From a virus, in the UHGV virus genome UHGV-0127942: a stretch of DNA of 40,194 nt, one strand, 5' to 3'. Below, in pieces: positions 16,492-36,296 of the stretch. Each line of letters begins with the position of its first letter. Within the stretch, counting starts at the first letter, position 1. The notes below the pieces were generated by a model. It saw only the letters and a program-made list of their open reading frames with translations, was not told the origin of the DNA and did not search any database. The position numbers were made by a program, and so were the translations under genes.

Positions 16492-16698
16492 ATGTGCATG
16501 GGTAGCTCACCATCAGTGCCTGCAACACCAGAAGTTCAGGCAGCACCACAGGAGCAGGATGCCGCCGTTGTTGATGCCCGCGACGAAGAAACACGTCGCC
16601 GTCGCGCTGCTGCTGGTCGTAGTTCTACGCTGCTTACCGGTTCTCAGGGCGACACATCAACCGCTAATACCAGCGGTAAAACGCTGCTTGGTCAGTAA
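16492..16698 (+). CDS. Small virion protein, T7 gp6.7-like
   Basis: 68 aa, low complexity, starts MC..SP like T7 gp6.7 (MCFSPK...) and sits just before the portal gene. Confidence 0.45.
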   Translation: MCMGSSPSVPATPEVQAAPQEQDAAVVDARDEETRRRRAAAGRSSTLLTGSQGDTSTANTSGKTLLGQ

Positions 16699-16712
16699 CC
16701 GGAGTCATTGAA

Positions 16713-18392
16713 ATGGCGGAAACAACTAAAGAGCGATTGAACAAACAGTTCGCACAACTTGAAAGCGAGCGTCAGTCGTTCGAGCCGCACTGGCGCGAGT
16801 TGAGTGATTACATCAACCCGCGTGGTTCCCGCTTTCTGACTTCTGAGGTCAACCGTAACGATCGACGCAATACACGCATTATTGATTCGACCGGGACTAT
16901 GGCGGCGCGCACTCTCGCCAGCGGCATGATGTCAGGCATCACAAGCCCCGCGCGTCCGTGGTTTCGCCTGGCTACGCCAGATCCTGAAATGATGGATTAT
17001 GGCCCTGTTAAGTTGTGGCTTGAGGCGGTGCAGAACCGCATGAACGATATGTTCAATAAGTCGAATCTCTATCAGTCGCTGCCGCAGTTATACGGAAGCC
17101 TCGGCACATACAGCACCGGTGCAATGGCGGTACTGGAGGATGACGAGGACATCATTCGCACAATGCCATTCCCGATAGGCAGTTACTACCTGGCTAACTC
17201 ACCTCGTGGCAGTGTGGACACCTGTTTTCGCAAGTTCTCTATGACTGTTCGTCAGCTTGTTCAGGAGTTCGGGCTAAATAACGTCAGCGAATCCGTAAAA
17301 AGCATGTGGGAAAGCGGTACCTACGAGAAGTGGATTGAAGTGATGCATTCGGTTTACCCGAACATTGACCGCGATACATCGAAGCTGGATAGCAAGAACA
17401 AGCCATTCAAATCGGTTTATTACGAGGTTGGTGGCGATAACGACAAGTTGTTGCGTGAGTCAGGATTCGATGAGTTTCCAATTATGGCTCCGCGCTGGGA
17501 AGTTAACGGCGAAGATGTTTATGGATCATCATGCCCGGGTATGCTGGCGCTTGGACCTGTTAAGGCATTGCAGCTTCTCCAGAAGCGCAAGTCGCAGTTG
17601 ATTGATAAAGCCACCAATCCGCCGATGGTTGCTCCGACTTCCCTCAAGAATCAGCGCGCCTCCCTTCTTCCTGGCGACATCACGTATATCGATCAGATTA
17701 CTGGTCAGGATGGTTTCAGGCCTGCTTATCTGGTTAACCCTAGTACAGCAGATCTGGTGGCAGACATTCAGGACACTCGCCAAATCATTAACAGCGCCTA
17801 CTTTGTCGATCTGTTCATGATGTTGCAGAACATCAATACCCGCTCGATGCCTGTTGAAGCGGTGATCGAAATGAAAGAAGAAAAACTTCTGATGTTGGGG
17901 CCGGTTCTGGAGCGTCTGAACGACGAATGTCTTAATCCTCTCATTGACCGCGCTTTCTCGATGATGGTGCGTAAAAACATGCTGCCGCCACCGCCTGACG
18001 CGATGGAAGGTATGCCCCTGAAGGTCGAATACATTTCTGTCATGGCTCAGGCGCAGAAGTCTATCGGCCTGTCCAGTCTGGCGTCCACGGTTAACTTCAT
18101 TGGTCAACTTGCGCAAGCGAAACCAGAAGCTCTCGACAAACTCAACGTTGATCAGGCGATCGATGCATTCGCTGATATGTCCGGAGTGTCTCCAACCGTC
18201 ATTGTTCCGCAGGAACAGGTTGAGCAGGCTCGCCAGCAACGGGCACAGCAACAACAGCAGCAACAAATGATGGCGATGGGGATGGCGGCGGCACAGGGTG
18301 CCAAGACGCTAAGCGAAGCTAAAACTTCGGATCCGAGTGTTTTGTCAGCTATGGCGAATGCAGTTAGTGGTCAGGGTGGGCAATCACAATGA
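16713..18392 (+). CDS. Portal (head-to-tail connector) protein, T7 gp8-like
   Basis: 559 aa; C-terminal QQRAQQQQQQQMMAMGMAAAQGA tail resembles the T7 gp8 C-terminus (QQKMAQQSMQMGMDNGAAALAQGMAAQA) as I recall it. Confidence 0.8.
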   Translation: MAETTKERLNKQFAQLESERQSFEPHWRELSDYINPRGSRFLTSEVNRNDRRNTRIIDSTGTMAARTLASGMMSGITSPARPWFRLATPDPEMMDYGPVKLWLEAVQNRMNDMFNKSNLYQSLPQLYGSLGTYSTGAMAVLEDDEDIIRTMPFPIGSYYLANSPRGSVDTCFRKFSMTVRQLVQEFGLNNVSESVKSMWESGTYEKWIEVMHSVYPNIDRDTSKLDSKNKPFKSVYYEVGGDNDKLLRESGFDEFPIMAPRWEVNGEDVYGSSCPGMLALGPVKALQLLQKRKSQLIDKATNPPMVAPTSLKNQRASLLPGDITYIDQITGQDGFRPAYLVNPSTADLVADIQDTRQIINSAYFVDLFMMLQNINTRSMPVEAVIEMKEEKLLMLGPVLERLNDECLNPLIDRAFSMMVRKNMLPPPPDAMEGMPLKVEYISVMAQAQKSIGLSSLASTVNFIGQLAQAKPEALDKLNVDQAIDAFADMSGVSPTVIVPQEQVEQARQQRAQQQQQQQMMAMGMAAAQGAKTLSEAKTSDPSVLSAMANAVSGQGGQSQ

Positions 18393-18685
18393 CAGATTAC
18401 GAAGACGATCAACTGAAAGAAGAAAACACCCGTAAGCAACGTGACATGGCACAGCGTGAAATTGATGACATTCGCTTTGTCATGAGCAGTGAACAGGGGC
18501 GTCGCGTTGTCTGGTCTGTGCTGGAGAAAGGCCGGGTGTTTTCCGCTATCTCTCCGATGGATGCTATGGCAATGGCATTTAATGAGGGGCAACGCAATCT
18601 GGCGCTGGAACTGTTTCAGCGCGTTATGGCGCATTGCCCTGAACAGTATTTGAAGATGGCCAAAGAGGCCAGTGAACAGGAGTGA
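18389..18685 (+). CDS. Hypothetical protein
   Basis: 98 aa; ATGA overlap with portal. Confidence 0.5.
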   Translation: MTDYEDDQLKEENTRKQRDMAQREIDDIRFVMSSEQGRRVVWSVLEKGRVFSAISPMDAMAMAFNEGQRNLALELFQRVMAHCPEQYLKMAKEASEQE

Positions 18686-18687
18686 TC

Positions 18688-19383
18688 ATGAATTTATTTG
18701 AGCGTTTGCTGTATCGCCGTCTTTGCAATGAGCAACCAGTCGATGGTGGAGCAGCTCCGGCTGCGTCAGAACCGTCAGCGCCTGCAGGTGATAACCCTGC
18801 TCCAGTTGGTGATCCATCACAACAGGAAGGTGATAAGCCACAACCTGTTGCTGATGGCGATAAACCTGCTGATGACAAAAAGCCTGAAAACGATAAGCAG
18901 GATGAAAAAAAGGACGGCGATAAACCAGAGGGTGCGCCTGAGAAGTACGAGTTTCAGGCTGCCGAAGGCGTAGAGCTGGATACAGAAGCGTTGAAGGAAT
19001 TCGAGCCGGTGGCGCGAGAACTTAACCTGACCAACGAGCAAGCGCAAAAGCTGGTTGATGCTTATCCGAAGATTCTGGCAGGTGTTCAGCAGCGCCAGGC
19101 AGAAGCCTGGCAGAAAACAACCGAGCAGTGGGCTGCGGATGTAAAAGCTGACAAAGAAATCGGTGGCGACAAGTTGATTTCTAACCTTAGCGCCGCACAG
19201 CGTGCGCTTGACCAGTTCGGGACACCTGAACTCAAAGAATATCTGAACACCACCGGGCTGGGTAATCACCCTGATCTGGTCAAAACGTTCGTGAAAATCG
19301 GAAAGGCGATGTCTGAAGATGGCATGGTCACCGGTGGTAATGAAGGCCAGCGTAGTGCGGCCGAAGTGCTCTATGGCAAATAA
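18688..19383 (+). CDS. Scaffolding protein (putative)
   Basis: Acidic, low-complexity N-terminal half and coiled-coil-like C-terminal half, between portal and capsid genes; ATG at 18688 after AGGAG. Confidence 0.55.
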   Translation: MNLFERLLYRRLCNEQPVDGGAAPAASEPSAPAGDNPAPVGDPSQQEGDKPQPVADGDKPADDKKPENDKQDEKKDGDKPEGAPEKYEFQAAEGVELDTEALKEFEPVARELNLTNEQAQKLVDAYPKILAGVQQRQAEAWQKTTEQWAADVKADKEIGGDKLISNLSAAQRALDQFGTPELKEYLNTTGLGNHPDLVKTFVKIGKAMSEDGMVTGGNEGQRSAAEVLYGK

Positions 19384-19391
19384 GAGAGGAA

Positions 19392-20384
19392 ATGACAATG
19401 GCTGTTAAAGGCTTAACTGCGCTAACGCTGGCTGACTGGGGTAAGCGCGTCGATCCAAACGGGAAAGTCGATAAGATTATCGAGCTTCTCGGTCAAACTA
19501 ACCCGATCCTTCAGGATATGCCTTTTGTCGAAGGGAACCTTCCTACCGGACACCGAACCACCATTCGTTCTGGTTTACCTTCAGCTACCTGGCGTTTGCT
19601 GAACTATGGCGTACAGCCAAGCAAATCAACAACGGTGCAGGTCACTGATTCCATTGGCATGCTGGAAACCTATGCTGAAGTCGATAAGTCACTGGCTGAT
19701 CTGAACGGCAATACCGCCGAATTCCGCCTGTCTGAAGACCGCGCATTTATTGAAGCGATGAATCAGCAGATGGCGCAGACGCTGTTTTATGGTGATTCCA
19801 GCGTTAACCCTCAGCAGTTTATGGGACTGTCCTCCCGCTATTCCAGCCTGTCTGCGGGTAATGCTCAGAACATCATTGATGCTGGTGGCACGGGTACAGA
19901 TAACACCTCAATCTGGTTAGTGGTGTGGGGCGAAAACACCGTGCATGGCATCTTCCCGAAAGGGCAGAAGGCTGGCATCCAGATGGAAGATAAAGGCCAG
20001 GTGACACTGGAAGATGCTGATGGCGGCAAGTACGAAGGCTATCGCACCCATTATAAATGGGATAACGGACTTGCTCTGCGTGACTGGCGTTATGTTGTTC
20101 GCATTGCAAACATCGATGTCAGCAATCTTTCAGAACCTTCCTCTGCCGCAAATATTGCGAAGTTGATGGTTAAAGCACTGCATCGCATTCCAAACCGTGG
20201 CATGGGCCGCCCGGTGTTCTACATGAACCGCACTGTAGGCCAGGCTCTTGATCTGCAATCTCTGGAGAAAACATCTCTGGCGATCAGCGTAAAAGAGACA
20301 GAAGGCGAGTGGTGGACTTCATTCCGTGGTGTACCAATCCGTGAAACTGATGCGCTTCTGGAAACAGAAGCCCGCGTGGTGTAA
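19392..20384 (+). CDS. Major capsid protein
   Basis: 330 aa immediately after the scaffold gene, strong RBS, followed by a stem-loop; position and size typical of a major capsid protein. Confidence 0.7.
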   Translation: MTMAVKGLTALTLADWGKRVDPNGKVDKIIELLGQTNPILQDMPFVEGNLPTGHRTTIRSGLPSATWRLLNYGVQPSKSTTVQVTDSIGMLETYAEVDKSLADLNGNTAEFRLSEDRAFIEAMNQQMAQTLFYGDSSVNPQQFMGLSSRYSSLSAGNAQNIIDAGGTGTDNTSIWLVVWGENTVHGIFPKGQKAGIQMEDKGQVTLEDADGGKYEGYRTHYKWDNGLALRDWRYVVRIANIDVSNLSEPSSAANIAKLMVKALHRIPNRGMGRPVFYMNRTVGQALDLQSLEKTSLAISVKETEGEWWTSFRGVPIRETDALLETEARVV

Positions 20385-20435: not shown

Positions 20436-20873
20436 ATGATCACCGACAAACTGTTGATGTTCTCCGAAGCTCAGGCGGTTACGAATACCGCGGCTTCTAC
20501 TGACGTAATCGATCTCGGTCCAATTGACGGAAAACGTCGTGATATCGGCGTGGGTTACCCGCTTGAGTTTTGGGCGCTGGTTAACACAGCCGCCGCGGCA
20601 AGCGGTGATGCAACTGTAAACATCCAGTTGCAGACGAGTGAGAATAACAGCTCATGGACCACTATTTATGATAGTGGCGCACTGGCAAAGACCGCCCTGA
20701 CAGCAGGTAAACGAGTTGTTTCTGCAAAGGTGCCTGCCGGTGTTCAGCGATATCTGCGTGTTAACTACTCCGTCGCAACTGGCCCACTAACGGCTGGCGA
20801 ATTCACTGCTGGTATCAGTCTTGATGTTGATGCCAATACGCCGTATCCGATCCGCTCAAAAGTAACTGGTTAA
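20436..20873 (+). CDS. Hypothetical structural protein (possible capsid decoration)
   Basis: 145 aa, Ala/Thr-rich, directly after the capsid gene. Confidence 0.45.
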   Translation: MITDKLLMFSEAQAVTNTAASTDVIDLGPIDGKRRDIGVGYPLEFWALVNTAAAASGDATVNIQLQTSENNSSWTTIYDSGALAKTALTAGKRVVSAKVPAGVQRYLRVNYSVATGPLTAGEFTAGISLDVDANTPYPIRSKVTG

Positions 20874-20874
20874 G

Positions 20875-21219
20875 GTGATATCGATGTCAGGTGAGAAACC
20901 AAGATACCGCGTTCTGCGCCTCTCTCATATCCATAACACTCTGTGGCCGGAGGGGGCAGAAATCGAATACGAAGGTGAGCCTGGTAGCGCACTGGAACCT
21001 GTTAACGATGCAGCCAGACAGGCAAAAGCAAAGGTAGCAGGAAAGGTGTCTATGGCAGCAACCAGCACCAAAATCATCAACGATGTGTCAGATGATGGTG
21101 AACTGGATAAGCTCCGTGAAGAGTACGAATTGCTCTTTAACGAGAAGCCACACCATAACGCTAAAGCCGAAACGCTCCGCGAGAAGATCGCAGATAAGCG
21201 TAAAGAACTGGGCGTGTAA
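20875..21219 (+). CDS. Hypothetical protein
   Basis: 114 aa; followed by an intrinsic terminator. Confidence 0.45.
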   Translation: MISMSGEKPRYRVLRLSHIHNTLWPEGAEIEYEGEPGSALEPVNDAARQAKAKVAGKVSMAATSTKIINDVSDDGELDKLREEYELLFNEKPHHNAKAETLREKIADKRKELGV

Positions 21220-21236
21220 GCCTCGCGAATCCGACA

Positions 21237-21257
21237 AGGGGCTTCGGCCCCTTTATT
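21237..21257 (+). terminator. Intrinsic terminator within the head/tail operon
   Basis: Hairpin AGGGGC-TTCG-GCCCCT followed by TTATT. Confidence 0.5.
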
Positions 21258-21263
21258 GCAGGA

Positions 21264-21593
21264 GTGTATATGGAACTCGTAAACCTCAAAACCGGCACTG
21301 ACAGCTACCAGGATGAGAGCGGAGAAACCAGAACTCGCGATGAATACCCGTGGGGGCTGTGCATCACTCTTAATAACGACACATTGAATAAGCTGAAGGC
21401 GCAACCTCAGGGCGTCGGAACAGAAGTGATGATAACTGCAAAGGCTGTTATTCGAGGCCTATCTGCCAGAGAAACTGACGATGGTGTTAATCGCAGCGCC
21501 GATCTGCAGATCACTGATATGGCGATCGCTCCTGTTTCCGGGGATGTAGAAAAATCAGCGGCTGAAACCCTGTACGGCAATGGGGGTGAGTAA
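21264..21593 (+). CDS. Hypothetical protein
   Basis: 109 aa; strong RBS. Confidence 0.45.
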   Translation: MYMELVNLKTGTDSYQDESGETRTRDEYPWGLCITLNNDTLNKLKAQPQGVGTEVMITAKAVIRGLSARETDDGVNRSADLQITDMAIAPVSGDVEKSAAETLYGNGGE

Positions 21594-22198
21594 TGGCCTC
21601 TGTAGTAGAGATCTGCAATCGTGCGCTGTCCAATATTGGCAATAGCCGCAGCATTAACAGCCTGACGGAAGCCAGTAAGGAAGCGGGGGAATGTTCGCTG
21701 CACTTTGAGGCCTGCCGTGATGCTGTGCTTTCTGATTTTGACTGGAACTTTGCTACCAAACGCGTGGCGCTTGCAGATACGAGCAATCCACCGCCTGACT
21801 GGGAATATGCGTATCAGTACCCGTCAGATTGTCTGCGCATTACTGAAATTATGCTTCCTGGTGTACGCAATCCAACAGCAGCAATGCGCGTTCAGTACGA
21901 AGTTGGTGCAGACACCAACGGAACAGGAAAGTTGATCTACACAGACCAGCCTCAGGCATGGCTCAAGTATGTCTCTCGCGTTACAGATGTAAACATGTTT
22001 GATGCCATTTTTATGGAGGCGCTGGCCTGGCGTCTTGCGGCAGCCATTAACATGGCGCTGACTGGGAATGCGGATCTCGGTACATTTGCTCTCAATATGT
22101 ACAATCGCGTGATTCTTAGTGCTGGCTCGCATAGCCAGAATGAATCACAGGAACCACAGCCACCGGTTGATGAGTTTACCATTGCGAGGTTGTCCTGA
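21593..22198 (+). CDS. Tail tubular protein A, T7 gp11-like
   Basis: 201 aa; N-terminus ICNRALSNIGNSRSINSL resembles T7 gp11 (VNDILASIGEPPVSTL); size and position match. Confidence 0.55.
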   Translation: MASVVEICNRALSNIGNSRSINSLTEASKEAGECSLHFEACRDAVLSDFDWNFATKRVALADTSNPPPDWEYAYQYPSDCLRITEIMLPGVRNPTAAMRVQYEVGADTNGTGKLIYTDQPQAWLKYVSRVTDVNMFDAIFMEALAWRLAAAINMALTGNADLGTFALNMYNRVILSAGSHSQNESQEPQPPVDEFTIARLS

Positions 22199-24669
22199 TG
22201 GCTATCAGTTGGATCCAGCCCAGCTTTGCCGGTGGTGAGATTGGACCGTCGTTGTACGGGCGTATTGACATGGCGAAGTACCAGGTGGCATTGCGCAAGT
22301 GCGATAACTTTATCGTGCGGCAGTATGGCGGCGTTGAGAATCGACCTGGTACGCGTTTTGTCGGTGCCGCCAAATACCCAAATCGGAAATGCCGTCTGAT
22401 CCCGTTCCAGTTCTCGACGGTTCAGACCTATGCTCTGGAGTTCGGACACCTGTACATGCGCGTTATCAAAGATGGTGCGTTGGTTCTGAACAGCAGCAAT
22501 GTTATTTATGAAATTGCCACGCCATATACTGAAGCCGATCTGTTCCGAATTAAATTCACGCAAAGCGCCGACGTGCTTACGCTGGTTCATCCGGCATACC
22601 CGCCGAAAGAGTTGCGTCGCTATGCGCATGACAACTGGCAACTGGTTGATGTGGTAACGAAGAACGGGCCATTTGAAGATATCAATATTGACGAGTCAGT
22701 GACGGTTTATGCCAGCGCCAGCACCGGGACAATTACGTTAACGGCAAGCGCCTCTATTTTTGGCGCGGAGCAGGTAGGCAAATTGTTCTATCTGGAACAG
22801 CCTGCAGTGGATTCTGTGCCGGTATGGGAAACCAGTAAGAGTACGTCGATTGGCGATATTCGCCGTGCAGACAGTAACTACTATCGCGCCGTTACAGCAG
22901 GCAAAACAGGTACTTTGCGCCCTTCGCATACAGAAGGCACATCATGGGATGGCTGGGGCGGATCCGGTGATGATGATACCGGCATTGAGTGGGAGTATCT
23001 GCACAGTGGTTTTGGCATTGCCCGTATCTCTGCTGCAAATGGAACTACTGCAACTGCCGAGGTGATTTCCTATATCCCTTCGCAGGTAGTTGGCGAGGAT
23101 AATGCCAGCTATAAATGGGCTAAATATGCCTGGAACAGTATTAACGGTTATCCTGGCACTGTTGTTTATTATCAACAACGCCTTTACTTCGCCGCATCGA
23201 CTGCGTTCCCTCAGACTATCTGGGCCAGCCGTACCGGGGATTATAAGGATTTTGGCAAAAGCAATCCTACGCAGGATGACGACAGAATTATCTACACCTA
23301 TGCCGGGCGTCAGGTTAATGAGATCCGTCACCTGATTGATGTTGGTTCGCTGGTGGCGCTGACTTCCGGAGGTGAGTACGTCATCACTGGCGACCAGAAC
23401 AAAGTGCTTACCCCATCATCATTTGCATTCAGCTCTCAGGGATCAAATGGCTCGAGCAATGTCCCACCAATTGCCGTGGCGAATATTGCTCTGTTCGTCC
23501 AGGAGAAAGGCAGTGTTGTCCGTGATCTGGCCTACTCATTCGATGTTGACGGCTATCAGGGGAACGACCTGACCATCCTTGCCAATCATCTTTTTCAGAA
23601 GCACAGCATTGTTGACTGGTGCTTCTCGATTGTCCCTTACTCCAGCGCCTTCTGCATTCGTGATGACGGTAAATTACTGGTGATGACCTATTTGCGTGAT
23701 CAGCAGGTTTTTGCATGGGCACCACAATCCAGTACCGGAAAATATGAAAGTACATGCAGTATCAGCGAAGGCAATGAAGATGCGGTGTATTTCGTCGTTA
23801 ACCGAACCGTTAACGGGCAAACAGTGAGATACATCGAGCGACTGTCCAGCCGTTTATTTACCAGCGATGAAGATGCTTTCTTTGTTGATTCTGGCCTTAG
23901 CTATGATGGAAGAAATACGTCTGACAGAACGATGATCATCACTGGTGGTTCTGGCGAATGGGATTACCGCGCGGAATATACAATCAGTGTTTCTGGTGGT
24001 GCGTACTTCACCAGTAGTGATGTCGGTGCTCAACTACAGTTCCCTTATACCGGAACTGATCCTGATACTGGCGATGAAGTGTCAAAAGAATTACGTTGCG
24101 ACATCATTTCTGTAACCAGCAATACCGCTGTAGTGGTTCGTGCTAACAGGAACGTCCCGCCATCCCTCAGGAATGTGGCCACCACGAACTGGCAGATGGC
24201 GCGCCGGACATTTGGAGGCCTGTCTCATCTTGAAGGCCAGACCGTAAACATTCTCTCTGATGCGAACGTGGAACCACAGAAAGTAGTTTCCGGAGGTGCC
24301 GTCACGCTGGAATCTCCGGGGGCTGTAGTGCACATCGGCCTGCCAATAACTGCTGAATTCGAAACACTGGATATCAACATTAACGGACAGGAAACGCTGC
24401 TGGACAAAAAACAGGTGATCCCATCCGTTACTCTGGTTGTGAATGCCAGTCGCGGCATCTGGGCGACTACGCCTGGCGGTAAATGGTACGAATATCCACA
24501 GCGTGAATTCGAGTTCTACGATGATCCTGTTGATGATGCTACCGGAAAAGTAGAAGTGAAACTGGACAGTAACTGGGGCAAAAACGGACGTGTAAGAATC
24601 CGTCAGCTTGACCCGTTGCCGCTGTCTGTTCTTGCCGTTATTCCTCGCCTTACTGTTGGGGGATTCTGA
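22198..24669 (+). CDS. Tail tubular protein B, T7 gp12-like
   Basis: 823 aa directly after the gp11-like gene with ATGA overlap; size and order match T7 gp12. Confidence 0.6.
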   Translation: MAISWIQPSFAGGEIGPSLYGRIDMAKYQVALRKCDNFIVRQYGGVENRPGTRFVGAAKYPNRKCRLIPFQFSTVQTYALEFGHLYMRVIKDGALVLNSSNVIYEIATPYTEADLFRIKFTQSADVLTLVHPAYPPKELRRYAHDNWQLVDVVTKNGPFEDINIDESVTVYASASTGTITLTASASIFGAEQVGKLFYLEQPAVDSVPVWETSKSTSIGDIRRADSNYYRAVTAGKTGTLRPSHTEGTSWDGWGGSGDDDTGIEWEYLHSGFGIARISAANGTTATAEVISYIPSQVVGEDNASYKWAKYAWNSINGYPGTVVYYQQRLYFAASTAFPQTIWASRTGDYKDFGKSNPTQDDDRIIYTYAGRQVNEIRHLIDVGSLVALTSGGEYVITGDQNKVLTPSSFAFSSQGSNGSSNVPPIAVANIALFVQEKGSVVRDLAYSFDVDGYQGNDLTILANHLFQKHSIVDWCFSIVPYSSAFCIRDDGKLLVMTYLRDQQVFAWAPQSSTGKYESTCSISEGNEDAVYFVVNRTVNGQTVRYIERLSSRLFTSDEDAFFVDSGLSYDGRNTSDRTMIITGGSGEWDYRAEYTISVSGGAYFTSSDVGAQLQFPYTGTDPDTGDEVSKELRCDIISVTSNTAVVVRANRNVPPSLRNVATTNWQMARRTFGGLSHLEGQTVNILSDANVEPQKVVSGGAVTLESPGAVVHIGLPITAEFETLDININGQETLLDKKQVIPSVTLVVNASRGIWATTPGGKWYEYPQREFEFYDDPVDDATGKVEVKLDSNWGKNGRVRIRQLDPLPLSVLAVIPRLTVGGF

Positions 24670-28191: not shown

Positions 28192-29990
28192 GTTACTTTG
28201 GCCTTAATCCAGTAAACCAGAATCAGCAGCTTGACGAAGCAGCATCAAATCCAGCGGGCTTTAACAGCGATGTTGGTTTTTTCGACAATGCTGTAGGAGC
28301 GGCATTGTCTGGTTTGTACTCCGGGCTGGTGGCAAAGCCAGACCAGTTGCTATGGGCAGGAATGGATAAAATCGTATCCCCGATTGCTCAGTTTGTTAAC
28401 GAAAACACCTCGTTCAATGATACTTCAGTTTCATACATTGCCGAGCAGAGAAAACTAGCAGAGCAGCAGGTTAAGCGGCTGACGCCTGATGCGGCGACAA
28501 CCGGAACCGCCGGGCAGGTCCTTTATGGGTTGTTCGATATGGGCGGGCAGGCTGTTGTCGGTACAACGCTCGGTGGTCCGGTCGGAGGTGCTGCGGCGGT
28601 AACTTCGCTACAGGGTTTTTCTGAGTTTGAACGGCTGACAGCACAGGGTGTTGATTTCAGGACGGCGCAGGAAGCGGGATTAGTGCAGGGTATTACTGCT
28701 GGTGCCGGAACACTGATCCCTATGAGCCTCGGGTTACGTGCTGGTGGTGCGCTGGCGGAAGGTGTGGCGGCTCAGCTTGCGCGGACGGGTGAAAGTTCAG
28801 TGCGACGCGCCGCAGCAACAGCAGTACGTGCAACGCCAGATATTGCCTATGCCGCAGGTACAAATATTGCGTTCGGTATGGCACAGCGTGGGCTTACTGC
28901 AAAAACGCTTCGTGATGGTGGCTATAGCGAAATGGCTAACCAGTATGATGTGTTGGATCGACAGGCAATTGCTATTGATGCTGTTCTTGGGGTGGCGTTT
29001 GGTGGTGTCGGCAGATTTATTAACTCTCGCGGCGAGTCTACAAACGCACCAAATTTTTCACCAGTTGATGTCGATGCTGCACTGGCGGCGAATGCCGCTC
29101 ATCATGCTGAAATTGATATTGCTCCCGGCGTCCCGATCAACGTGCTTTCGCGCAATTCTCACATTCAGGCTCTGCGAAAAGCCATGTCTGATGTTAGCCA
29201 GGGGAGGCCTGTAGACGTTGCCAGCATTGTTGAGTCTGCATCTTTCAGTGAAATTCCTGGGCGCAAGAGTCTGCTGTCTCAGGCAGTTAATGAGGCTCTG
29301 TCATCTGTAGATGATGGAGTAACGGCGCGCGCTATAGAAAATCGGTTGCTTGAAGAACAGGCTGCGCAGCTTTTGCCGCGTGGCGATAGACAGGTTTACC
29401 AGTCTGAAATCGCTAATAGCCAACGAATTATTGAAAATCTCACTGAACAGCGCGCACAAATTCTTGCAGAAGAGCCAACCGGTAGCGGTAAGGCTTTATC
29501 TCGTGCTCGATCAGATAAACAGGCCAGACTTCGCGATATTGACCAACGAATCCGGCAGGCACAAGAACGCCTGGAATTTTCCCGTAACGCGTTGGCACCG
29601 CATGAGCCTGGCGGTCAGTTTTTTGAAGCTCGAGCAGAACTGGCACGGCGACAACAGGCAGAAAGTGAACTTAATGCTCAGGCTGTTTCATTCTATAAAA
29701 CAGCAGAGGTCAGGACGCCAGACGAAGTAGCTCCTTTTGAGCCCGGTAAGATATTGCAACAGGCAGAACAAAAGATGATGGCAGATCCGGCAGGAGATAT
29801 TGATCTGCGCATAGCTGAAGACTCGCTGCTTGAATCACCTGACATGATAATCACCGTGCTGGATGATGATGGTAATCCACAATCGCGCAGTGCGCGTGAA
29901 GTACTGGATGAAGCGAACATGGAAAGTGAGCAGGCAATACAGGATTCCAGCCTGTTTGATGTCGCTGTGGCGTGTTTCTTGAGAGGTTAA
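28188..29990 (+). CDS. Internal virion / ejection protein
   Basis: 600 aa, Gly/Ala-rich N-terminal region; ATGA overlap with upstream gene. Confidence 0.5.
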   Translation: MSYFGLNPVNQNQQLDEAASNPAGFNSDVGFFDNAVGAALSGLYSGLVAKPDQLLWAGMDKIVSPIAQFVNENTSFNDTSVSYIAEQRKLAEQQVKRLTPDAATTGTAGQVLYGLFDMGGQAVVGTTLGGPVGGAAAVTSLQGFSEFERLTAQGVDFRTAQEAGLVQGITAGAGTLIPMSLGLRAGGALAEGVAAQLARTGESSVRRAAATAVRATPDIAYAAGTNIAFGMAQRGLTAKTLRDGGYSEMANQYDVLDRQAIAIDAVLGVAFGGVGRFINSRGESTNAPNFSPVDVDAALAANAAHHAEIDIAPGVPINVLSRNSHIQALRKAMSDVSQGRPVDVASIVESASFSEIPGRKSLLSQAVNEALSSVDDGVTARAIENRLLEEQAAQLLPRGDRQVYQSEIANSQRIIENLTEQRAQILAEEPTGSGKALSRARSDKQARLRDIDQRIRQAQERLEFSRNALAPHEPGGQFFEARAELARRQQAESELNAQAVSFYKTAEVRTPDEVAPFEPGKILQQAEQKMMADPAGDIDLRIAEDSLLESPDMIITVLDDDGNPQSRSAREVLDEANMESEQAIQDSSLFDVAVACFLRG

Positions 29991-29995
29991 ATTAA

Positions 29996-32470
29996 ATGAG
30001 ACAGGAATGTATACAAGCGGTTCAGCAGGCGGCGCAGCGCACGTTAACGGCGCGAGAAATACAGAACATTGAAGACCGCATTTATCGAAATATGCGCTCC
30101 ATTGCTCGTGATGACCCGATGTCGTGGAGACAACTTTCCGAATCAGAGCGGCTATATCGAGCAGCACAATTGGCATCTGAAGAATTACAGCGAGAAGCGG
30201 CATTAAAGAAACGTCGTGTGGCCCTCACTATAGCCGCACGTCAGAGATTGGATAAATTTATCAATAGCTATCAAGGGGCTGATGGGAAACTTGGCGCTCT
30301 TAACCGTACTATTGCTTTTAATGCAGACGGTAAATCGAATTTCCTCTCTGTTGAGTCCAGAACAAAAGCCACTCGTGATTATGCATTGAGTCAATTGCAG
30401 GAGGCATTTGAAGCAGTTGATCCTCGCTTTTTTGGCCTGTTTGAAGATGAAGCTGGCGTGCGTGATCTGGTATATGAAATGCGAGGGCAAAATACTGGCA
30501 ATGCTAAAGCAAGAAAAGGTGCTAAGGCGTGGAGAGAAGTTACAGAGCTGCTGCGCCGCCGGTTTAATGATGCTGGTGGGGACATTGGCTATCTCGAAAA
30601 CTGGGGGATCCCTCAACATCATTCTATGGAAAAGGTTGGGGCGGTATCAAAAGATAAATGGGTTAGCGATGTTATAGGTAAGCTGGATCGCAAATATTAT
30701 ACCCGAGCCGATGGACAACTGATGAACGATGCCGAGTTGTCTGCATTTCTTGGAGAGGCTTATAACACGATCGCTACTGGTGGGCTGAATAAGCTTACTG
30801 ATACCGGAATGCGAATTTCCGGCGCACGTGCTAACCGTGGTAATGCATCACGACAGATACATTTCAAAGATGCAGATTCCTATCTGCAATATCAGCAACT
30901 TTATGGCGATCGCTCTCTATGGGAAATCATGGTCGGTCACCTTGAAGGTATCAGTAAAGATATTGCACTGGTGGAAACATATGGCCCAAACCCCGATCAT
31001 GTTTTCCGCTCTCTTCTTGATCAGGTGAAGGCAGAAACGGCAACAGCTAACCCGAGTAAAACCGGTAAAGTCGAGCGGCTGGCGAACAACACAGAGAATC
31101 TGTACAACTTTATTTCCGGAAAGACACAGCCTGTAGCGAATCCGCACATCGCGCGATGGTCTGACAATATCCGCAACTGGCTGGTTGCCAGCAGACTCGG
31201 ATCCGCGTTGCTGTCATCGTTCTCTGATCTTGGAACCATGTATCTGTCTGCGAAGGTTACCAACCTTCCAATGAACCAGTTATTCCGCAACCAGCTTGAA
31301 GCTATGGACCCAACGAACCGTACAGAACTTGCGCGGGCGCGCCGCGCTGGTCTGGCGATGGAATCTCTACTTGGCAGCGTTAACCGCTGGGCGATGGATA
31401 ATATGGGGCCGTCTGTGTCTCGTTGGGCGGCAACGGCGGTAATGCGTGCCAGTGGGCTTACAGCATGGTCAGATGCGCACAAGCGCGCCTATGGCGTAAC
31501 CATGATTGGAAGCCTGGGAGAAGTAGTGTCACGGACACCAGACCTTCGTAGCCTCGATAATTCTGATTTTCGTATCCTGAAAAGCAAAGGGATTACTGAC
31601 ACAGACTGGAGCGTATGGAAGCTGGCGCAACAGGAGGACTGGGGGAACGGCAATAATACGATGCTGACACCGGAAAGCATTATGCGTATCCCTGATTCAG
31701 CAGTTAAACATCTTGGTGAGCCTGAACGCGTGAAATTTGAGGCAATGCGTAAACTGCTCGGTGCCGTAACTGAAGAAGTTGATATGGCTGTTATTACACC
31801 GGGAGCACGTGAGCAACTGATAACCGGTTCTGGTATTCAGCGTGGAACATGGAAAGGTGAATTAACGAGAAGTGTTTTCCTGTTTAAATCGTTCCCTATC
31901 TCGGTGGTTATGCGTCACTGGTCACGCGCTATGGGTATGCCGTCTGCTGGTGGGCGTGCGGCATATATTGCGACGTTTATTGCCAGTACGACCATTCTTG
32001 GCGCTTTGTCGCAGCAACTTAACGACCTTGCGTCTGGTCGTAATCCTCGCGAGATGACAGGAGAAGATGCTGCTAAATTTTGGCTTGGTGCTCTACTGAA
32101 AGGTGGTGGTCTTGGCCTTTACGGTGACTTTTTATTGTCAGATCACACTAGGTACGGAAGCGGCGCGCTGGCGTCGATGCTTGGCCCGGTAGCTGGTCTG
32201 GTTGATGACGTAGTGAAGATTGCTCAGGGCATACCGTTAAATGCTGTGGAAGGGAAGAGTGAGCAGACTGGTGGTGATCTGGTGAAGCTGGGGAAAGGTT
32301 TGATGCCAGGTGCGAATCTCTGGTACTTAAAGGCGGCTCTCGATCATATGATCTTTAACCAGATGCAGGAGTATTTTTCACCAGGCTATTTGCGTAAAAT
32401 GGAGCAACGTTCGAAGAAAGAGTTTAATCAGACATACTGGTGGCGACCTCAGGATGTCACTCCGCAATAA
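29996..32470 (+). CDS. Internal virion / ejection protein (gp16-position)
   Basis: 824 aa; together with the preceding gene occupies the position of T7 gp16. Confidence 0.5.
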   Translation: MRQECIQAVQQAAQRTLTAREIQNIEDRIYRNMRSIARDDPMSWRQLSESERLYRAAQLASEELQREAALKKRRVALTIAARQRLDKFINSYQGADGKLGALNRTIAFNADGKSNFLSVESRTKATRDYALSQLQEAFEAVDPRFFGLFEDEAGVRDLVYEMRGQNTGNAKARKGAKAWREVTELLRRRFNDAGGDIGYLENWGIPQHHSMEKVGAVSKDKWVSDVIGKLDRKYYTRADGQLMNDAELSAFLGEAYNTIATGGLNKLTDTGMRISGARANRGNASRQIHFKDADSYLQYQQLYGDRSLWEIMVGHLEGISKDIALVETYGPNPDHVFRSLLDQVKAETATANPSKTGKVERLANNTENLYNFISGKTQPVANPHIARWSDNIRNWLVASRLGSALLSSFSDLGTMYLSAKVTNLPMNQLFRNQLEAMDPTNRTELARARRAGLAMESLLGSVNRWAMDNMGPSVSRWAATAVMRASGLTAWSDAHKRAYGVTMIGSLGEVVSRTPDLRSLDNSDFRILKSKGITDTDWSVWKLAQQEDWGNGNNTMLTPESIMRIPDSAVKHLGEPERVKFEAMRKLLGAVTEEVDMAVITPGAREQLITGSGIQRGTWKGELTRSVFLFKSFPISVVMRHWSRAMGMPSAGGRAAYIATFIASTTILGALSQQLNDLASGRNPREMTGEDAAKFWLGALLKGGGLGLYGDFLLSDHTRYGSGALASMLGPVAGLVDDVVKIAQGIPLNAVEGKSEQTGGDLVKLGKGLMPGANLWYLKAALDHMIFNQMQEYFSPGYLRKMEQRSKKEFNQTYWWRPQDVTPQ

Positions 32471-32665: not shown

Positions 32666-32956
32666 ATGCAAGCTATAGGATTCATTGTTTATATCGTCGT
32701 TGGTCTTTTTCAGTTGGCAGCAATTATGGCTGGGCTTGAATCATGGTGGGGATTGCACTGGATAATTGCAGCCCCCATTGCTTTCATCGTGAGCTATATT
32801 CCATTTGTTGGAGCGATTGTTGGTATGGTTGGTGCTGTGGATGTATGGCGGTGGGAGTGGTGGCAGGCTGGCCTTCTCTTCTTTGGTGGGATCATCTTTG
32901 CTATTGTCTGCGGTGGAATGTCATCATTTTTCGAACGGCTATCATTCAGAAAATGA
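32666..32956 (+). CDS. Small integral membrane protein
   Basis: 96 aa with several predicted transmembrane stretches (IVYIVVGLFQLAAIMAGL..., IAAPIAFIVSYIPFVGAIVGMVGAV...); followed by a palindrome and a terminator. Confidence 0.5.
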   Translation: MQAIGFIVYIVVGLFQLAAIMAGLESWWGLHWIIAAPIAFIVSYIPFVGAIVGMVGAVDVWRWEWWQAGLLFFGGIIFAIVCGGMSSFFERLSFRK

Positions 32957-32958: not shown

Positions 32959-32970
32959 GTGACATGTCAC
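32959..32970. promoter_or_regulatory. 12-bp perfect palindrome GTGACATGTCAC (copy 3)
   Basis: 3 nt after the stop of the membrane-protein gene and directly abutting the terminator hairpin at 32971-32995. Confidence 0.5.
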
Positions 32971-32995
32971 AGGCCGCTTTCGCGGCCTTTTCTTT
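32971..32995 (+). terminator. Intrinsic terminator after the internal-virion/membrane-protein block
   Basis: Hairpin AGGCCGC-TTTC-GCGGCCT followed by TTTTCTTT. Confidence 0.6.
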
Positions 32996-33251
32996 ATGTG
33001 GTTTGTTTTCGTAATTGTTCGGCACAATAGTCGAGATGTGTTTGCAGATCCCGCATAGACATCTGTGAGCTGGTGACGTAGTTAATCAGTGCAGTCAGTT
33101 CGGCAAGTGGGCCATCGACATTAAATCCATCCTTATCGAGATCCCGGAGTAATTTCATCAAGTGCGATCCCTCCACCAGTGACCTGACGCCTCCCGGCGT
33201 GTGGATCCTTTCGGTAAATCCGTCTTCCAGTGGATAGTGATACTGCTGCAT
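32994..33251 (-). CDS. LexA-controlled small protein, candidate antirepressor
   Basis: 85-aa minus-strand ORF with RBS GGAGAAG; promoter immediately upstream contains a near-consensus LexA box; no protein family I can name. Confidence 0.6.
   Translation of the reverse strand: MQQYHYPLEDGFTERIHTPGGVRSLVEGSHLMKLLRDLDKDGFNVDGPLAELTALINYVTSSQMSMRDLQTHLDYCAEQLRKQTT
32995..33016 (+). promoter_or_regulatory. Candidate promoter: TATGTGGTTT-N6-GTAATT
   Basis: Perfect 10-mer immediately after the terminator at 32971-32995; would transcribe antisense across the LexA-controlled gene. Confidence 0.35.
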
Positions 33252-33290: not shown

Positions 33291-33327
33291 TCAAATAATT
33301 TGTTTGCTATCCAGCACGTTTTGCAAA

Positions 33328-33342
33328 TTACCCGAAAGGTAA
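33328..33342. promoter_or_regulatory. Operator-like palindrome TTACC-N5-GGTAA between the LexA-controlled gene and the tail-fibre gene
   Basis: Perfect site 32 bp upstream of TATGTGGTTT (33374-33383) and about 40 bp from the LexA box. Confidence 0.55.
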
Positions 33343-33373
33343 TATCTGTTCATATTCACAGTCTTTCTATCCA

Positions 33374-33398
33374 TATGTGGTTTTTCAGGTAATAGAAT
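33374..33398 (+). promoter_or_regulatory. Candidate late promoter: TATGTGGTTT-N6-TAATAGAAT
   Basis: Perfect 10-mer followed by -10-like TAATAG/TAGAAT, about 50-70 bp upstream of the tail-fibre ATG. Confidence 0.4.
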
Positions 33399-33446
33399 AA
33401 CCAGATATGCGGCGCAACGGGTGCTGCGACTATCTGGAGATTTAAC

Positions 33447-36296
33447 ATGACGGTCTCAACCGAAGTTGACCACAACGAATACACAGGTAACGGCGTTACG
33501 ACATCATTTCCGTATACCTTCCGTATTTTCAAAAAATCCGACCTGGTTGTTCAGGTGTCTGACCTTAACGGTAACGTAACAGAACTAGTGCTGGATGCTG
33601 GTTATACAGTAACAGGGGCGGGAACTTATAGTGGCGGTGCAGTGGTTCTTCCGTCGCCGCTTGCTGCTGGCTGGCGAATCACGATAGAGCGTGTGCTTGA
33701 TGTGGTGCAGGAGACTGATCTTCGCAATCAGGGAAAATTTTTCCCCGAAGTTCATGAAGATGCATTTGACTACCTGACGATGCTGATCCAGCGATGTTTT
33801 GGGTGGTTCAGACGTGCATTGATGAAACCATCTTTGCTTGCAAAATATTACGATGCAAAGCAAAACAGAATTTCCAATTTGGCCGATCCGAAGAACTCTC
33901 AGGATGCTGTAACAAAAAAATATGTGCAAGACTTATATAGTGGGGTAGTTAGGCCTGATAACATCGACAACGCAATGTATGTTACAGATCTCGCTAATGG
34001 CAAATATGACAGCTCTCGCTTGGACATGTCTGTCGGGTATGAGATAAAAACCATTTCAAACTTTGTCAGGATTAATGGGGCTGTTTATCGTGTTACTCCT
34101 GCTGCAGTCGGCATAGTGACAGAAATAACCTCGCGTTACATTTTGGCCGGAGGGAAAAAAAGCTACCTGTCTCATATTTCCAGGCATGTCAGTGGTACGC
34201 GTAGGCCGCTGAACTGGAAATTAGAATTCAGCATCATAGACGATGAGATTACCGCAGATCTTAAAGATCAGTATGGTTACACGACCATGGGATTTCAGGG
34301 GATTTACATAGACAGCAATGATGGAATGGTATACATCGGCTGGCAGACGCTAGACCCCGCATCGGTATGGGTTACGGTGCATGACTGGGTAACAGGAGCA
34401 TTGGTAACACGTCTTCATTTTCCGAATAACGTTGGTGCACCAGAAGGCATCCACGTTTACCGAGTGGCAGGACAGCGTTACATCCTGCTGCCGTACAGCC
34501 CATCTCGCACTATCAGAATTTACCCTATCGAAGATCCGCGTACGCTGGTTGATAAAACGCAGATTACAAACTTCACTGAATCAACACGCCTTGGAGTGCG
34601 ATATCAGTTTAGTGGCTTTGGTAATACCCTGATATACGAAAATGCGGATATGGGTTGGCCGAAAATTTTTGATGTTGAGACAGGTGTATCCAATATCTTT
34701 AACACACTGGATATTAACAGCCTTATAGAAGGATCTTACAGTCCAATGGGGACTATTACGGTTGATGCAAATGTTGGAGGTCGCGGAGCCGGTAAACCAA
34801 AACGGCAGGGTGTCGCTCTTGGTTCTCAACGGATATTTGCTGGTATTGGTGCATCTACCACGGCGGGATCTGGAAATACTTTCGCAGGGTTGCAGGGTTA
34901 TATTGAGTACAGCCTTAATGGTTCAGAATTAGGTCAGTACCTGCTGTCACCTGCAGATTTCAAAACATACTGGGATAGTTATTCAGGGAAGAGTGTTTAC
35001 TCCACTGAAAATGAGGGGGTGCAGTCTTGTGATATTTCTGGCTCTGAGGAATTGTATCTTCTACAGTCTATTCGCTATGACAATGGGGGCGGATCAAATT
35101 ATAGGACTTTAAACATCATTCGCGCTAACTGTCCATCTAATGAACCTGGAACAGTAGACATGACTCCGCTATCCAATGCCTCATCACAGTTATTTAACCC
35201 TCGCGGAAGGGTGATTAACGCTGGCCGTCACCCTGTAAACCCGGCTGATGGTATTGCGCTATTTACATCGGCACAGGCTATTTGTGACTATTTGCGGAAT
35301 ACAGATGCAGGTAGATATGTGACATATCTTGAACAGGATATGCCACTGTTTGAAGGTGGGCCATCTGCGCCAGGACAGATGACGCTGCCAGCATTCTGCC
35401 TATTGCAGATCGACTTCATCAACGGCGATACCTGGGAAATTACAGTTAATGGAACTAACAGGGCTAATAATTATACAGGAAGGATTTCCAAAAACGGCGG
35501 GTACAACTCTTTTACTAAGGTGTCCTCCCGCAGCATGTCGATTCTCGGATCCCCTGGTCTGGTTGATGTATCAATTCGCTCACCTAACTCACTAAATCTT
35601 CCAGAATTTGCTGGAGACTGGTCTACTGGTGTAAGTATAGGAGCTGCAGGTGGGGTGACAAACTGGCAGCCAGAAGGAACAGGTAACGGAGCATTATGGG
35701 AGTCAGGATATGCAAAAAACCGTGTGTTGCAGATATTCATGTCCACAACATCAAAACTGTTCTTCCGCTACGCAGACGATGCTATTCGCGCAGGTAACAC
35801 AGGCTGGGCTGAGGCATGGTCGTCGCTGAACACGACCGTCGATTCAAGTGGTTTCATCAAAAAAGCCTCTCCGGTTGTGAAGATTTTCTCAGACGGTAGT
35901 AGTGAAACAAATCGCGAATCAGATGGGGTAACCGTCACACGGCTGGCATTGGGGGAATATCTGATTGAGGGTTGCGTAGGTCTGAATGCAGATGCTTCAT
36001 GGGGGGGGATTGATGGTGGATTTGAAATACCGCAGGACCGAAACAAGCAGCCGCTCATCTGGCTGGATTATGTTGTTAACCAAGATGGCTCTGTGTTGGT
36101 GAAAACGTTTCACCGCACTCATGATAACTCGCCCGTTTTTGCACGTAACGACATCCCTGGTGTTTCGAACGGTGACCCGATCGACATTCCTGCTAATCAG
36201 TTCGTTTCTGTGCGAGTACAGATGCCTGAGGATTCAGCATGGAATAAGCTTAAGGAACAACTCAATAAGGCTGAACCAATGGAAAAAAATAAGTAA
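33447..36296 (+). CDS. Tail fibre / tailspike protein with T7 gp17-like N-terminal adaptor domain
   Basis: 949 aa; N-terminal about 160 residues (GNGVTTSFPYTFRIF...RISNLADPKNSQDAVTKKYV) resemble the T7 tail-fibre N-terminal domain; divergent C-terminal region. Confidence 0.8.
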   Translation: MTVSTEVDHNEYTGNGVTTSFPYTFRIFKKSDLVVQVSDLNGNVTELVLDAGYTVTGAGTYSGGAVVLPSPLAAGWRITIERVLDVVQETDLRNQGKFFPEVHEDAFDYLTMLIQRCFGWFRRALMKPSLLAKYYDAKQNRISNLADPKNSQDAVTKKYVQDLYSGVVRPDNIDNAMYVTDLANGKYDSSRLDMSVGYEIKTISNFVRINGAVYRVTPAAVGIVTEITSRYILAGGKKSYLSHISRHVSGTRRPLNWKLEFSIIDDEITADLKDQYGYTTMGFQGIYIDSNDGMVYIGWQTLDPASVWVTVHDWVTGALVTRLHFPNNVGAPEGIHVYRVAGQRYILLPYSPSRTIRIYPIEDPRTLVDKTQITNFTESTRLGVRYQFSGFGNTLIYENADMGWPKIFDVETGVSNIFNTLDINSLIEGSYSPMGTITVDANVGGRGAGKPKRQGVALGSQRIFAGIGASTTAGSGNTFAGLQGYIEYSLNGSELGQYLLSPADFKTYWDSYSGKSVYSTENEGVQSCDISGSEELYLLQSIRYDNGGGSNYRTLNIIRANCPSNEPGTVDMTPLSNASSQLFNPRGRVINAGRHPVNPADGIALFTSAQAICDYLRNTDAGRYVTYLEQDMPLFEGGPSAPGQMTLPAFCLLQIDFINGDTWEITVNGTNRANNYTGRISKNGGYNSFTKVSSRSMSILGSPGLVDVSIRSPNSLNLPEFAGDWSTGVSIGAAGGVTNWQPEGTGNGALWESGYAKNRVLQIFMSTTSKLFFRYADDAIRAGNTGWAEAWSSLNTTVDSSGFIKKASPVVKIFSDGSSETNRESDGVTVTRLALGEYLIEGCVGLNADASWGGIDGGFEIPQDRNKQPLIWLDYVVNQDGSVLVKTFHRTHDNSPVFARNDIPGVSNGDPIDIPANQFVSVRVQMPEDSAWNKLKEQLNKAEPMEKNK

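Follow-up and report, generated by a model that had tools for sequence, protein, structure and literature searches.

The stretch of DNA analysed here is the 40,194 nucleotide virus genome UHGV-0127942 (the window), and this 40.2 kb is nearly all one prophage of Escherichia coli. The integrase gene begins 49 bases in and phage homology runs out near 38478, beyond which are the E. coli chromosomal genes yfgI, yfgH, and yfgG, found in 5426 of 5426 complete E. coli genomes. In the close relative E. coli 2017.18.02CC the prophage sits after guaA, carries a fibre gene product that is 100% identical, and has a left arm about 2.6 kb shorter. The region 16492-36296 is, with high confidence, the block of late (virion) genes in an apparently intact prophage that belongs to Uetakevirus, the genus in which the records of both phiV10 and epsilon15 are placed. 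Among the virion genes, likeness to phage T7 holds for the portal, the tail, gp13, gp14, the gp16-class protein, and the fibre anchor, which are in T7 order, and fails for the capsid shell, the two decoration proteins, the scaffold candidate, and the terminase.

An earlier reading of the window, made from the letters without database searches (the sequence-only reading), had described a T7-like virion module in T7 gene order inside a temperate prophage, and had suggested a resemblance to epsilon15 and phiV10. All of its open reading frames (ORFs) are present on the + strand at the same coordinates in the ORF map. Six smaller genes that it left out are added here, encoding the Bbp19-like, Bbp16-like, 114 amino acid (aa), gp10-like, 96-aa, and gp19-like proteins (Table 1). 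The terminase genes, which were outside its coordinates, also belong to the virion module.

Table 1. Features of the prophage in order along the window; IVP, internal virion protein.
Feature	Position	Strand	Family, match, or remark
Integrase, P4-type tyrosine	50-1306		Pfam Arm-DNA-bind_3, Phage_integrase
RecT	3315-4283		
PDDEXK exonuclease	4253-5074		RecE partner of RecT
HTH_3 repressor, CI-type	5882-6466		Pfam; faces small cro-position ORF
DnaT/HTH_36 initiator	7218-8033		Pfam; holds five iterons
Lambda-P-family loader	8015-8815		Pfam Phage_lambda_P
Terminase small subunit	13181-13855	+	
Terminase large subunit	13852-15327	+	phrog_2
Repressor-operator-like site	16387-16401	+	Upstream of main virion operon
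68-aa epsilon15 gp3-like protein	16492-16698	+	phrog_831; 88% identical to epsilon15 gp3
Portal, T7 gp8 family	16713-18392	+	Pfam PF12236, E = 1.6e-187
98-aa Bbp19-like protein	18389-18685	+	Pfam PF25181, E = 2.8e-17
233-aa scaffolding-protein candidate	18682-19383	+	phrog_458 'protease'
Major capsid protein, epsilon15 gp7/BPP-1 Bbp17 family	19392-20384	+	Pfam PF20911, E = 2.7e-149
Bbp16-like cement protein	20436-20873	+	
114-aa epsilon15 gp9-like protein	20875-21219	+	
Epsilon15 gp10-like decoration ('staple') protein	21264-21593	+	
201-aa tail adaptor, T7 gp11/tubular tail A type	21593-22198	+	
823-aa tail nozzle, T7 gp12/tubular tail B type	22198-24669	+	
154-aa IVP-A homolog (T7 gp13)	24669-25133	+	phrog_308, E = 9e-63
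181-aa IVP-B homolog (T7 gp14)	25133-25678	+	Pfam PF24072 T7_gp14
837-aa internal protein, epsilon15 gp15 equivalent	25678-28191	+	phrog_992, 1044, 873, 7182
600-aa internal protein, epsilon15 gp16 equivalent	28188-29990	+	phrog_1145
824-aa internal protein, predicted IVP-D homolog (T7 gp16 body), epsilon15 gp17 equivalent	29996-32470	+	
96-aa multi-pass membrane protein	32666-32956	+	phrog_3075
Bidirectional terminator	32971-32988		Terminator scan
85-aa epsilon15 gp19-like gene	32994-33251	-	phrog_450
Repressor-operator-like site	33328-33342	+	Upstream of fibre gene
949-aa tail fibre/tailspike	33447-36296	+	Mosaic of three parts

By megablast, the region 16492-36296 matches phiv142-3 at 98.4% over 88% of its length, HEMP4 at 97.6% over 88%, and phiV10 at 98.1% over 84%, followed by PAS61 and ZX5, and then by Enterobacter phage Tyrion (82%) and epsilon15 (76%). 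The suggested resemblance to this group is therefore borne out: over 84-88% of the block, the DNA is 98% identical to that of phages of the phiV10 group. The early arm (1-16491) is 96-97% identical over 54-77% to phiV10-group phages, and the lysis arm matches the same phages as the virion block and the early arm. The blockwise identities of 16492-36296 and 1-16491 are at the level expected of Uetakevirus under the genus guideline of the International Committee on Taxonomy of Viruses, which is about 70% nucleotide identity across the genome. The order is also that of the genus, being terminase, gp3, portal, capsid, tail, internal proteins, fibre, lysis, integrase, and early genes, with an ORF map that is collinear with phiV10 and epsilon15. 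A short-tailed (podovirus) particle would be expected by homology to epsilon15 and Carin-1, the particles of which have been solved.

The phiV10/epsilon15-type group is very common. There are 485 relatives of the nozzle in IMG/VR, the best 80 of the 485 all being at least 99% identical, and more than 3000 database relatives of the 600-aa protein, of which the best 120 are near-identical (99%) E. coli copies. Since the relatives are near-identical, both sets are of no use for profile building.

Twelve families from the window were compared with 11 T7 families by hhalign. Every signal in this matrix is on the syntenic diagonal, off-diagonal values being 1.6% or less for those proteins that give a signal. 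The portal has reciprocal matches with T7 gp8 to phrog_332 and phrog_449 and aligns to T7 gp8 at 97.3% (E = 2.4e-11). The nozzle matches the Carin-1 tail nozzle (PDB 8ck1_A, E = 4.8e-216) and that of LME-1 (2.3e-15), and it aligns by hhalign to the central domain of T7 gp12 at 53% (E = 1.4e-4); the epsilon15 and T7 tubular tail B profiles have been reported to match at E < 1e-10 (Hardies 2016, PMC4819975).

The adaptor matches the Carin-1 connector (PDB 8ck1_E, E = 4e-26), and its AlphaFold2 model, with a predicted local distance difference test (pLDDT) score of 77, has full-length Foldseek matches to Carin-1 (1.9e-15), LME-1 (1.7e-8), and T7 gp11 (4.4e-6). Further matches are to KP32 tail tubular protein A (5e-6), P-SCSP1u, and PhiM1, and P22 gp4 is absent from the fold-search matches. 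Identity of the adaptor to Carin-1 and LME-1 is just 17-33%, and a profile hidden Markov model of its family reaches Carin-1 and LME-1, and not T7, among PDB sequences. The link of the adaptor to T7 gp11 is by predicted fold only, and a HHpred match to T7 gp11 is recorded in the RefSeq note on the epsilon15 adaptor. For the adaptor, the nozzle, and the anchor of the fibre, the nearest solved structures are those of the Cobetia marina phage Carin-1 (PDB 8ck1) and the Legionella phage LME-1 (PDB 9efk). These phages differ from the prophage in their hosts and non-structural genes. LME-1, in which there is also a separate decoration protein, is an integrative element with T7 gene order and a virion that "closely resembles" T7 (PMC12407071).

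Directly downstream of the nozzle gene are the homologs of T7 gp13 and gp14. The 154-aa protein shares phrog_308 with T7 gp13 (1e-42 for gp13) and aligns to it by hhalign at 91% (E = 1.1e-6). The 181-aa protein scores 32.5 bits against PF24072, which has a cutoff of 27, and aligns to gp14 at 23% (E = 8.8e-4).

There are three large internal proteins in the prophage, compared with two in T7. The first, of 837 aa, is 59% identical to epsilon15 gp15 and has no profile link to T7 gp15 or gp16. Its residues 249-398 are a lytic transglycosylase/lysozyme domain, matching the N-terminus of Gp29, a 1295-aa phage protein (PDB 9vvp_L, E = 3.9e-38), and the endolysin 7q47 (E = 2.7e-17); in T7 the transglycosylase domain is instead at the N-terminus of gp16, whereas here it is in a separate upstream protein. 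The second, of 600 aa, is 32% identical to epsilon15 gp16, and has no PDB match and no T7 partner in the profile comparison. Jointly, the 837-aa and 600-aa proteins fill the position of gp15 (IVP-C), the 837-aa protein being first. The same assignment has been made by position for epsilon15 gp15 and gp16, unconfirmed by sequence (Hardies 2016, PMC4819975).

The sequence-only reading had two ORFs, for the 600-aa and 824-aa proteins, occupying the position of T7 gp16. The 824-aa protein alone appears from its predicted structure to be the gp16 homolog, which keeps half of that assignment, and the 600-aa protein belongs with gp15. The AlphaFold2 model of the 824-aa protein, from a 61-sequence alignment, is all-alpha (pLDDT 85, predicted template modelling score (pTM) 0.86). 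Its Foldseek matches in BFVD are to 'internal virion protein D' and core proteins of Autographiviridae, with E values of 9e-9 to 7e-6 and a probability of 1.0, among them those of Bordetella phage BB8 (9e-9), Ralstonia phage RSB3 (2e-7), LKA1 (3e-7), and Providencia phage PSTRCR_120 (5e-6). From a deep alignment, hhalign finds residues 758-1124 of T7 gp16 (E = 0.0024, probability 12%), with all other T7 families at 0.5% or less; the family profile finds nothing significant among PDB sequences. The epsilon15 equivalent, gp17, has been named IVP-D (Hardies 2016, PMC4819975).

That the 600-aa and 824-aa proteins are simply a split gp16 was considered and rejected. The 824-aa family has 5144 representative clusters at 50% identity, nearly all of them stand-alone proteins of 810-870 aa, so that a protein of about 820-870 aa standing alone is the usual form, and the literature also gives the equivalent of the 600-aa protein the gp15 position (Hardies 2016). 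This rejection is qualified by some relatives in which the N-terminal region of the 600-aa protein is fused with domains like those of the 824-aa protein: its residues 1-350 match the N-terminal ends of five giant proteins (1707-2913 aa) that have 824-like C-termini. These giant relatives (P0261, P0262, P0268, P0314, and P0355) have enzyme domains in the middle, including a transglycosylase motif, HExxH zincin motifs, and others, and look like the ejected proteins called 'polyvalent' in UniProt.

The N-terminal anchor of the fibre, residues 1-168, is a particle-binding domain of the T7 gp17 type, as had been read from the sequence; phrog_1640, 27277, and 2710 are common to it and T7 gp17. It matches the Carin-1 fibre (8ck1/28lx, E = 7e-29) and scores 19.6 bits against Pfam PF03906, below the 25.2-bit cutoff.

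No T7 link was found for the capsid, scaffold candidate, decoration, 68-aa, 837-aa, or 600-aa proteins, and the T7-like module of the sequence-only reading does not therefore extend to the capsid, the scaffold, or its 'gp6.7-like' gene. The capsid protein is 61.5% identical to BcepC6B gp08 and 42.6% identical to epsilon15 gp7, with no profile link to T7 gp10 (hhalign 0.1%, no better than controls) and no PHROG in common with it. The three small proteins encoded after it (20436-21593) match PF21190 (E = 4.7e-47), PF21628 (E = 1.2e-51), and phrog_590, and have no T7 counterparts. The terminase matches Pfam Terminase_2 (E = 1.4e-29), is annotated as such in phiV10 and epsilon15, and is not of the T7 type. 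The 68-aa protein occupies a gp6.7-like position; homology to T7 gp6.7, which is in phrog_1391, is statistically unsupported, with a BLAST E value of 2 and an hhalign value of 3.8% that is the same as for controls.

The 233-aa protein is labelled 'protease' in phrog_458 and in the epsilon15 and phiV10 records, a label that derives from similarity to an unstudied prophage gene. It has no peptidase match in Pfam, NCBIfam, or PDB, nor any PDB match at all, and across five phages it has no invariant Ser, Cys, or His. Its first 85 or so residues are low-complexity, disordered, and acidic, rich in Pro, Asp, Lys, and Glu, and are followed by a helical core; Asp and Glu make up 19% of the protein, compared with 22% of T7 gp9. 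This composition, the lack of invariant residues, and the position between portal and capsid favour a scaffold, as the sequence-only reading had it, over the protease of the databases. The protein does not appear to be a homolog of T7 gp9, for which hhalign gives 0.2%, no better than controls, and with which it has no common PHROG.

Some observations weigh against this being an intact prophage with T7-type portal, tail, and ejection genes. A homolog of T7 gp15 was not detected by hhalign or among PDB entries, where the 837-aa and 600-aa proteins are without a solved or matched fold. Among solved structures nothing matches the model of the 824-aa protein significantly (best E = 0.056), the link of this protein to gp16 being made through predicted structures and a weak hhalign score, and the sequence link of the adaptor to gp11 is weak, with hhalign values of 0.1-2.7% (0.1% with a shallow alignment). 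Scans for sigma-70 promoters around the virion operons gave results at chance level, so that repressor control of the late genes is read from motif position alone. The left attachment site, attL, is not within the window, and the ability of this copy to be induced and to form particles is judged from sequence alone.

These last two points, together with the interval between the fibre and lysis genes, which is without the O-antigen gene of relatives, are those that would fit a defective remnant with a virion block that is no longer functional. The virion ORFs are, however, all of full length, in an arrangement collinear with that of phiV10, phiv142-3, HEMP4, and PAS61, which have been isolated as phages, and no frameshifts were seen in essential genes; the integrase, repressor, replication, and lysis genes are intact; and there are thousands of copies in other genomes, 99-100% identical among the matches listed. 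A remnant is therefore unlikely. The sequence-only reading had itself raised the alternative of a virion module that is P22-like or siphovirus-derived, and not T7/BPP-1-like. There are parts of the block for which this has some appeal, since the terminase is not T7-type and is related to Sf6 gp2 and P1 PacB in the epsilon15 and phiV10 records, epsilon15 terminase and capsid have been grouped with siphoviruses (Hardies 2016, PMC4819975), epsilon15 gp14 and gp16 cluster with P22 (Swanson 2022), the distal part of the fibre is like siphovirus side tail fibres, and its receptor-binding part is also in P22-like phages. For the tail and portal, however, such an origin is largely refuted: the adaptor fold matches are of T7 type only, without P22 gp4, the nozzle matches Carin-1, LME-1, and T7 gp12, the portal belongs with T7 gp8, the fibre anchor and the gp13 and gp14 homologs are of T7 type, and the T7 matches are all syntenic. 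As an account of the whole module it is very improbable.

The presence of T7 gene order beside integrase, CI, and P genes, and of a capsid nearer to that of BcepC6B than to that of epsilon15, which is a sign of mosaicism, might indicate a recent chimera in which a lambdoid prophage captured the structural genes of a lytic T7-like phage. Against this, pairwise BLAST to T7 proteins is not significant for the 68-aa protein, for the adaptor with gp11, or for the nozzle with gp12, which would make for an ancient split from T7. Epsilon15, BcepC6B, VP2, pelagiphages (with the same module order in Skadi), and LME-1 all share the arrangement, and the 824-aa family alone has the several thousand clusters given above. 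Recent capture is thus barely conceivable, and the late block of an intact Uetakevirus prophage, with portal, tail, and ejection genes sharing distant ancestry with those of T7, is the preferred reading.

In this Uetakevirus prophage, by analogy with work on epsilon15, Carin-1, LME-1, and T7, a capsid of the epsilon15 gp7/BPP-1 family would assemble on the T7-type portal, aided by the 233-aa scaffold candidate, and would be joined by the Bbp16-like and gp10-like decoration proteins. The T7-type adaptor ring and nozzle would make the tail, on which the fibres would dock by their T7 gp17-type N-terminal domain. The gp14-like, 837-aa, 600-aa, and 824-aa proteins may be packaged and, on later ejection, make up a channel through the cell envelope, the transglycosylase domain of the 837-aa protein cutting peptidoglycan during ejection. 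The virion genes would be read by host RNA polymerase, unlike those of T7, and appear to be under the control of the CI-type repressor.

The mosaic fibre gene is the sole unusual part of the element. The N-terminal anchor is 87-89% identical to those of HEMP4 and phiv142-3, and after residue 168 there is no DNA-level match in any phage record. Residues 170-575 have no Pfam match. Residues 575-949 match PF25670 (E = 3e-59) and the SU10 fibre (7z47_D, E = 7e-61), and resemble the side tail fibres of siphoviruses, at 47-59% for HK544 and mEp234 and in a range of 35-59% when HK446 is included.

The receptor-binding part of the fibre gene (33950-36296) is rare, being found in 19 of 5426 complete E. 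coli genomes. Most of these 19 have it, with 99.4% identity in DNA, in a P22-like phage that carries Arc/antirepressor and DNA-transfer genes, where it is attached to a head-binding domain of the P22 type, as at 9001-11139 of NZ_CP146561.1. The fact that the same receptor-binding part is present on a P22-type head-binding domain indicates that this module has been exchanged between two podovirus tail types. Two of the P22-like carriers are 39.9 kb circular records deposited as plasmids.

The gap between the fibre gene and the holin-like gene is 225 bases (36296-36521) and contains no O-antigen-modifying gene. At the same place after the fibre there is an O-acetyltransferase in phiV10, PAS61, and TL-2011b, and there are O-antigen polymerase/inhibitor (conversion) genes in epsilon15. 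Given a fibre whose receptor-binding part bears no relation to the O-antigen tailspikes of either phiV10 or epsilon15, and given the missing O-antigen-modifying gene, it is possible, if doubtful, that the lineage has changed its class of receptor. If the fibre binds a protein or core lipopolysaccharide receptor, this would be an example from nature of one receptor-binding module being passed between podovirus tails of two types. In practical terms, the fibre mosaic is of modest interest to those who predict host range or engineer phages.

The phages phiV10, phiv142-3, HEMP4, and vB_EcoP_PAS61 share with the prophage their gene order, integrase type, lysis cassette, and three palindromes described below. 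They differ in the receptor-binding part of the fibre, which after residue 168 is unrelated to that of the prophage, and the prophage is without the O-acetyltransferase after the fibre, has the 96-aa membrane protein where phiV10 has a Bro-N antirepressor, and has a metallophosphatase by the integrase gene. Epsilon15, the type Uetakevirus and a Salmonella phage that has been studied by electron cryomicroscopy and proteomics, has the same gp3-gp20 order, type of operator, and palindromes. Its portal, adaptor, and nozzle are 81-88% identical to those of the prophage, whereas identity is 43% for the capsid, 36-43% for the decoration proteins, 32% for the 600-aa protein, and 28% for the 824-aa protein. 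These uneven identities show the genome to be mosaic. The serotype-conversion genes and beta-helix tailspike are epsilon15's own, and it has no tRNA.

Burkholderia phage BcepC6B and Bordetella phage BPP-1, which are temperate podophages with an integrase, are alike in module order and in their Bbp16- and Bbp19-type proteins, with 31% identity in the 824-aa protein. They differ in having their own DNA polymerase and helicase, in a portal that is just 28% identical, and in their fibres. Homology to T7 extends, with the order unchanged, over the portal, adaptor, nozzle, gp13, gp14, gp16 body, and N-terminal domain of the fibre, whereas the prophage has no RNA polymerase, is not lytic-only, has a capsid of another family and another scaffold, has decoration proteins, and has an unrelated terminase.

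The T7 relationship of the tail and ejection proteins in this group was already known, and its finding here is correct but ordinary. It is reported in the RefSeq note on epsilon15 gp11, by Hardies 2016 (PMC4819975), where the T7-type portal-tail-ejection ensemble is called the 'transient tail homology group', in a review of ejection proteins, and in the LME-1 study of 2025 (PMC12407071). As both the phiV10/epsilon15 group and this T7 ancestry are documented, the block has little weight as a discovery. The gain is in annotation, with a function proposed for nearly every gene in a block where the records of relatives mostly say hypothetical. The propagated 'protease' label is corrected in favour of a scaffold candidate, and the predicted T7 gp16 homolog is placed on the 824-aa protein, which has a confident all-alpha model without a solved counterpart.

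The sequence TTACC-N5-GGTAA is present at 8 sites (5748, 5810, 6522, 8853, 8915, 13227, 16387, and 33328), where 0.03 would be expected. In the early region there are two downstream of the repressor gene, one in the gap between the repressor and the cro-position ORF, and two after the P gene. Each of the other three is either just ahead of or right at the beginning of a virion gene block, these being the terminase genes (13227), the operon of the 68-aa protein and portal (16387), and the fibre gene (33328). Equivalent sites are annotated as repressor-binding in the epsilon15 record, that of the fibre gene being at 19895-19911. The location of operator-like sites directly before the late gene blocks suggests that the repressor may act on these directly, rather than there being lambda-style antitermination by Q. 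No antiterminator family (N or Q) was found among the early ORFs scanned, the absence of Q being by Pfam scan only.

There are also three exact copies of a 12 bp palindrome, GTGACATGTCAC, where 0.09 would be expected. They are at 13137-13148, ahead of the terminase genes, at 15402-15413, following the gene for the large terminase, and at 32959-32970, following the internal-protein operon, and each is at a boundary between operons, adjoining a rho-independent terminator. Epsilon15, phiV10, and about 80 IMG/VR relatives have the palindrome at these three positions too. The records of epsilon15 and phiV10 carry no annotation for it, and it is missing from the loci of BcepC6B, VP2, and Skadi and from the T7-like loci. 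A late regulator could bind to it; a gp49-like regulator is encoded at 12793-13140.

That the prophage is temperate and without a phage RNA polymerase is upheld by the presence of the integrase and CI-type repressor genes and by the ORF map and family assignments, in which there is no candidate in the window for a single-subunit RNA polymerase. Such a gene is not possible, because every ORF of at least 314 aa is assigned otherwise. Possession of its own single-subunit RNA polymerase is the defining feature of a member of the Autographiviridae, and since it has no such gene the element is outside this family. It is also only partly lambdoid. It has an integrase, a divergent CI/Cro-type immunity region, an initiator gene with iterons, and a P-type helicase loader. 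The lysis cassette is downstream of the fibre gene, and not before the terminase as in the lambda late order. The 76-aa ORF in the cro position has no Pfam match.

Two further descriptions in the sequence-only reading, of a 'Bet-type' recombination module and of lambda O/P replication, need revision. The recombination genes encode RecT and a PDDEXK exonuclease, and are thus of the RecT/RecE type. The P-family loader is as described, whereas the 'O' protein, an initiator with DnaT and HTH_36 domains, resembles lambda O in its layout and not in its family. Within the initiator gene, at 7472-7624, are five iterons of about 24 nt with the consensus GAATATACCCAAAAACGGGA, and this cluster is probably the replication origin, laid out as in lambda O. 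A calcineurin-like metallophosphatase is encoded beside the integrase gene, at 1309-2088 on the - strand; phiV10 has a DUF1382 gene in its place.

Between the terminase and portal operons, at 15988-16064 on the - strand, is a gene for tRNA-Arg with the anticodon UCU, which reads the rare AGA codon. This tRNA-Arg(UCU) is absent from epsilon15. The same gene is present in phiV10 at 2853-2929 on the - strand, where it is unannotated in RefSeq and a hypothetical coding sequence, PhiV10p04, has been called over it on the opposite strand.

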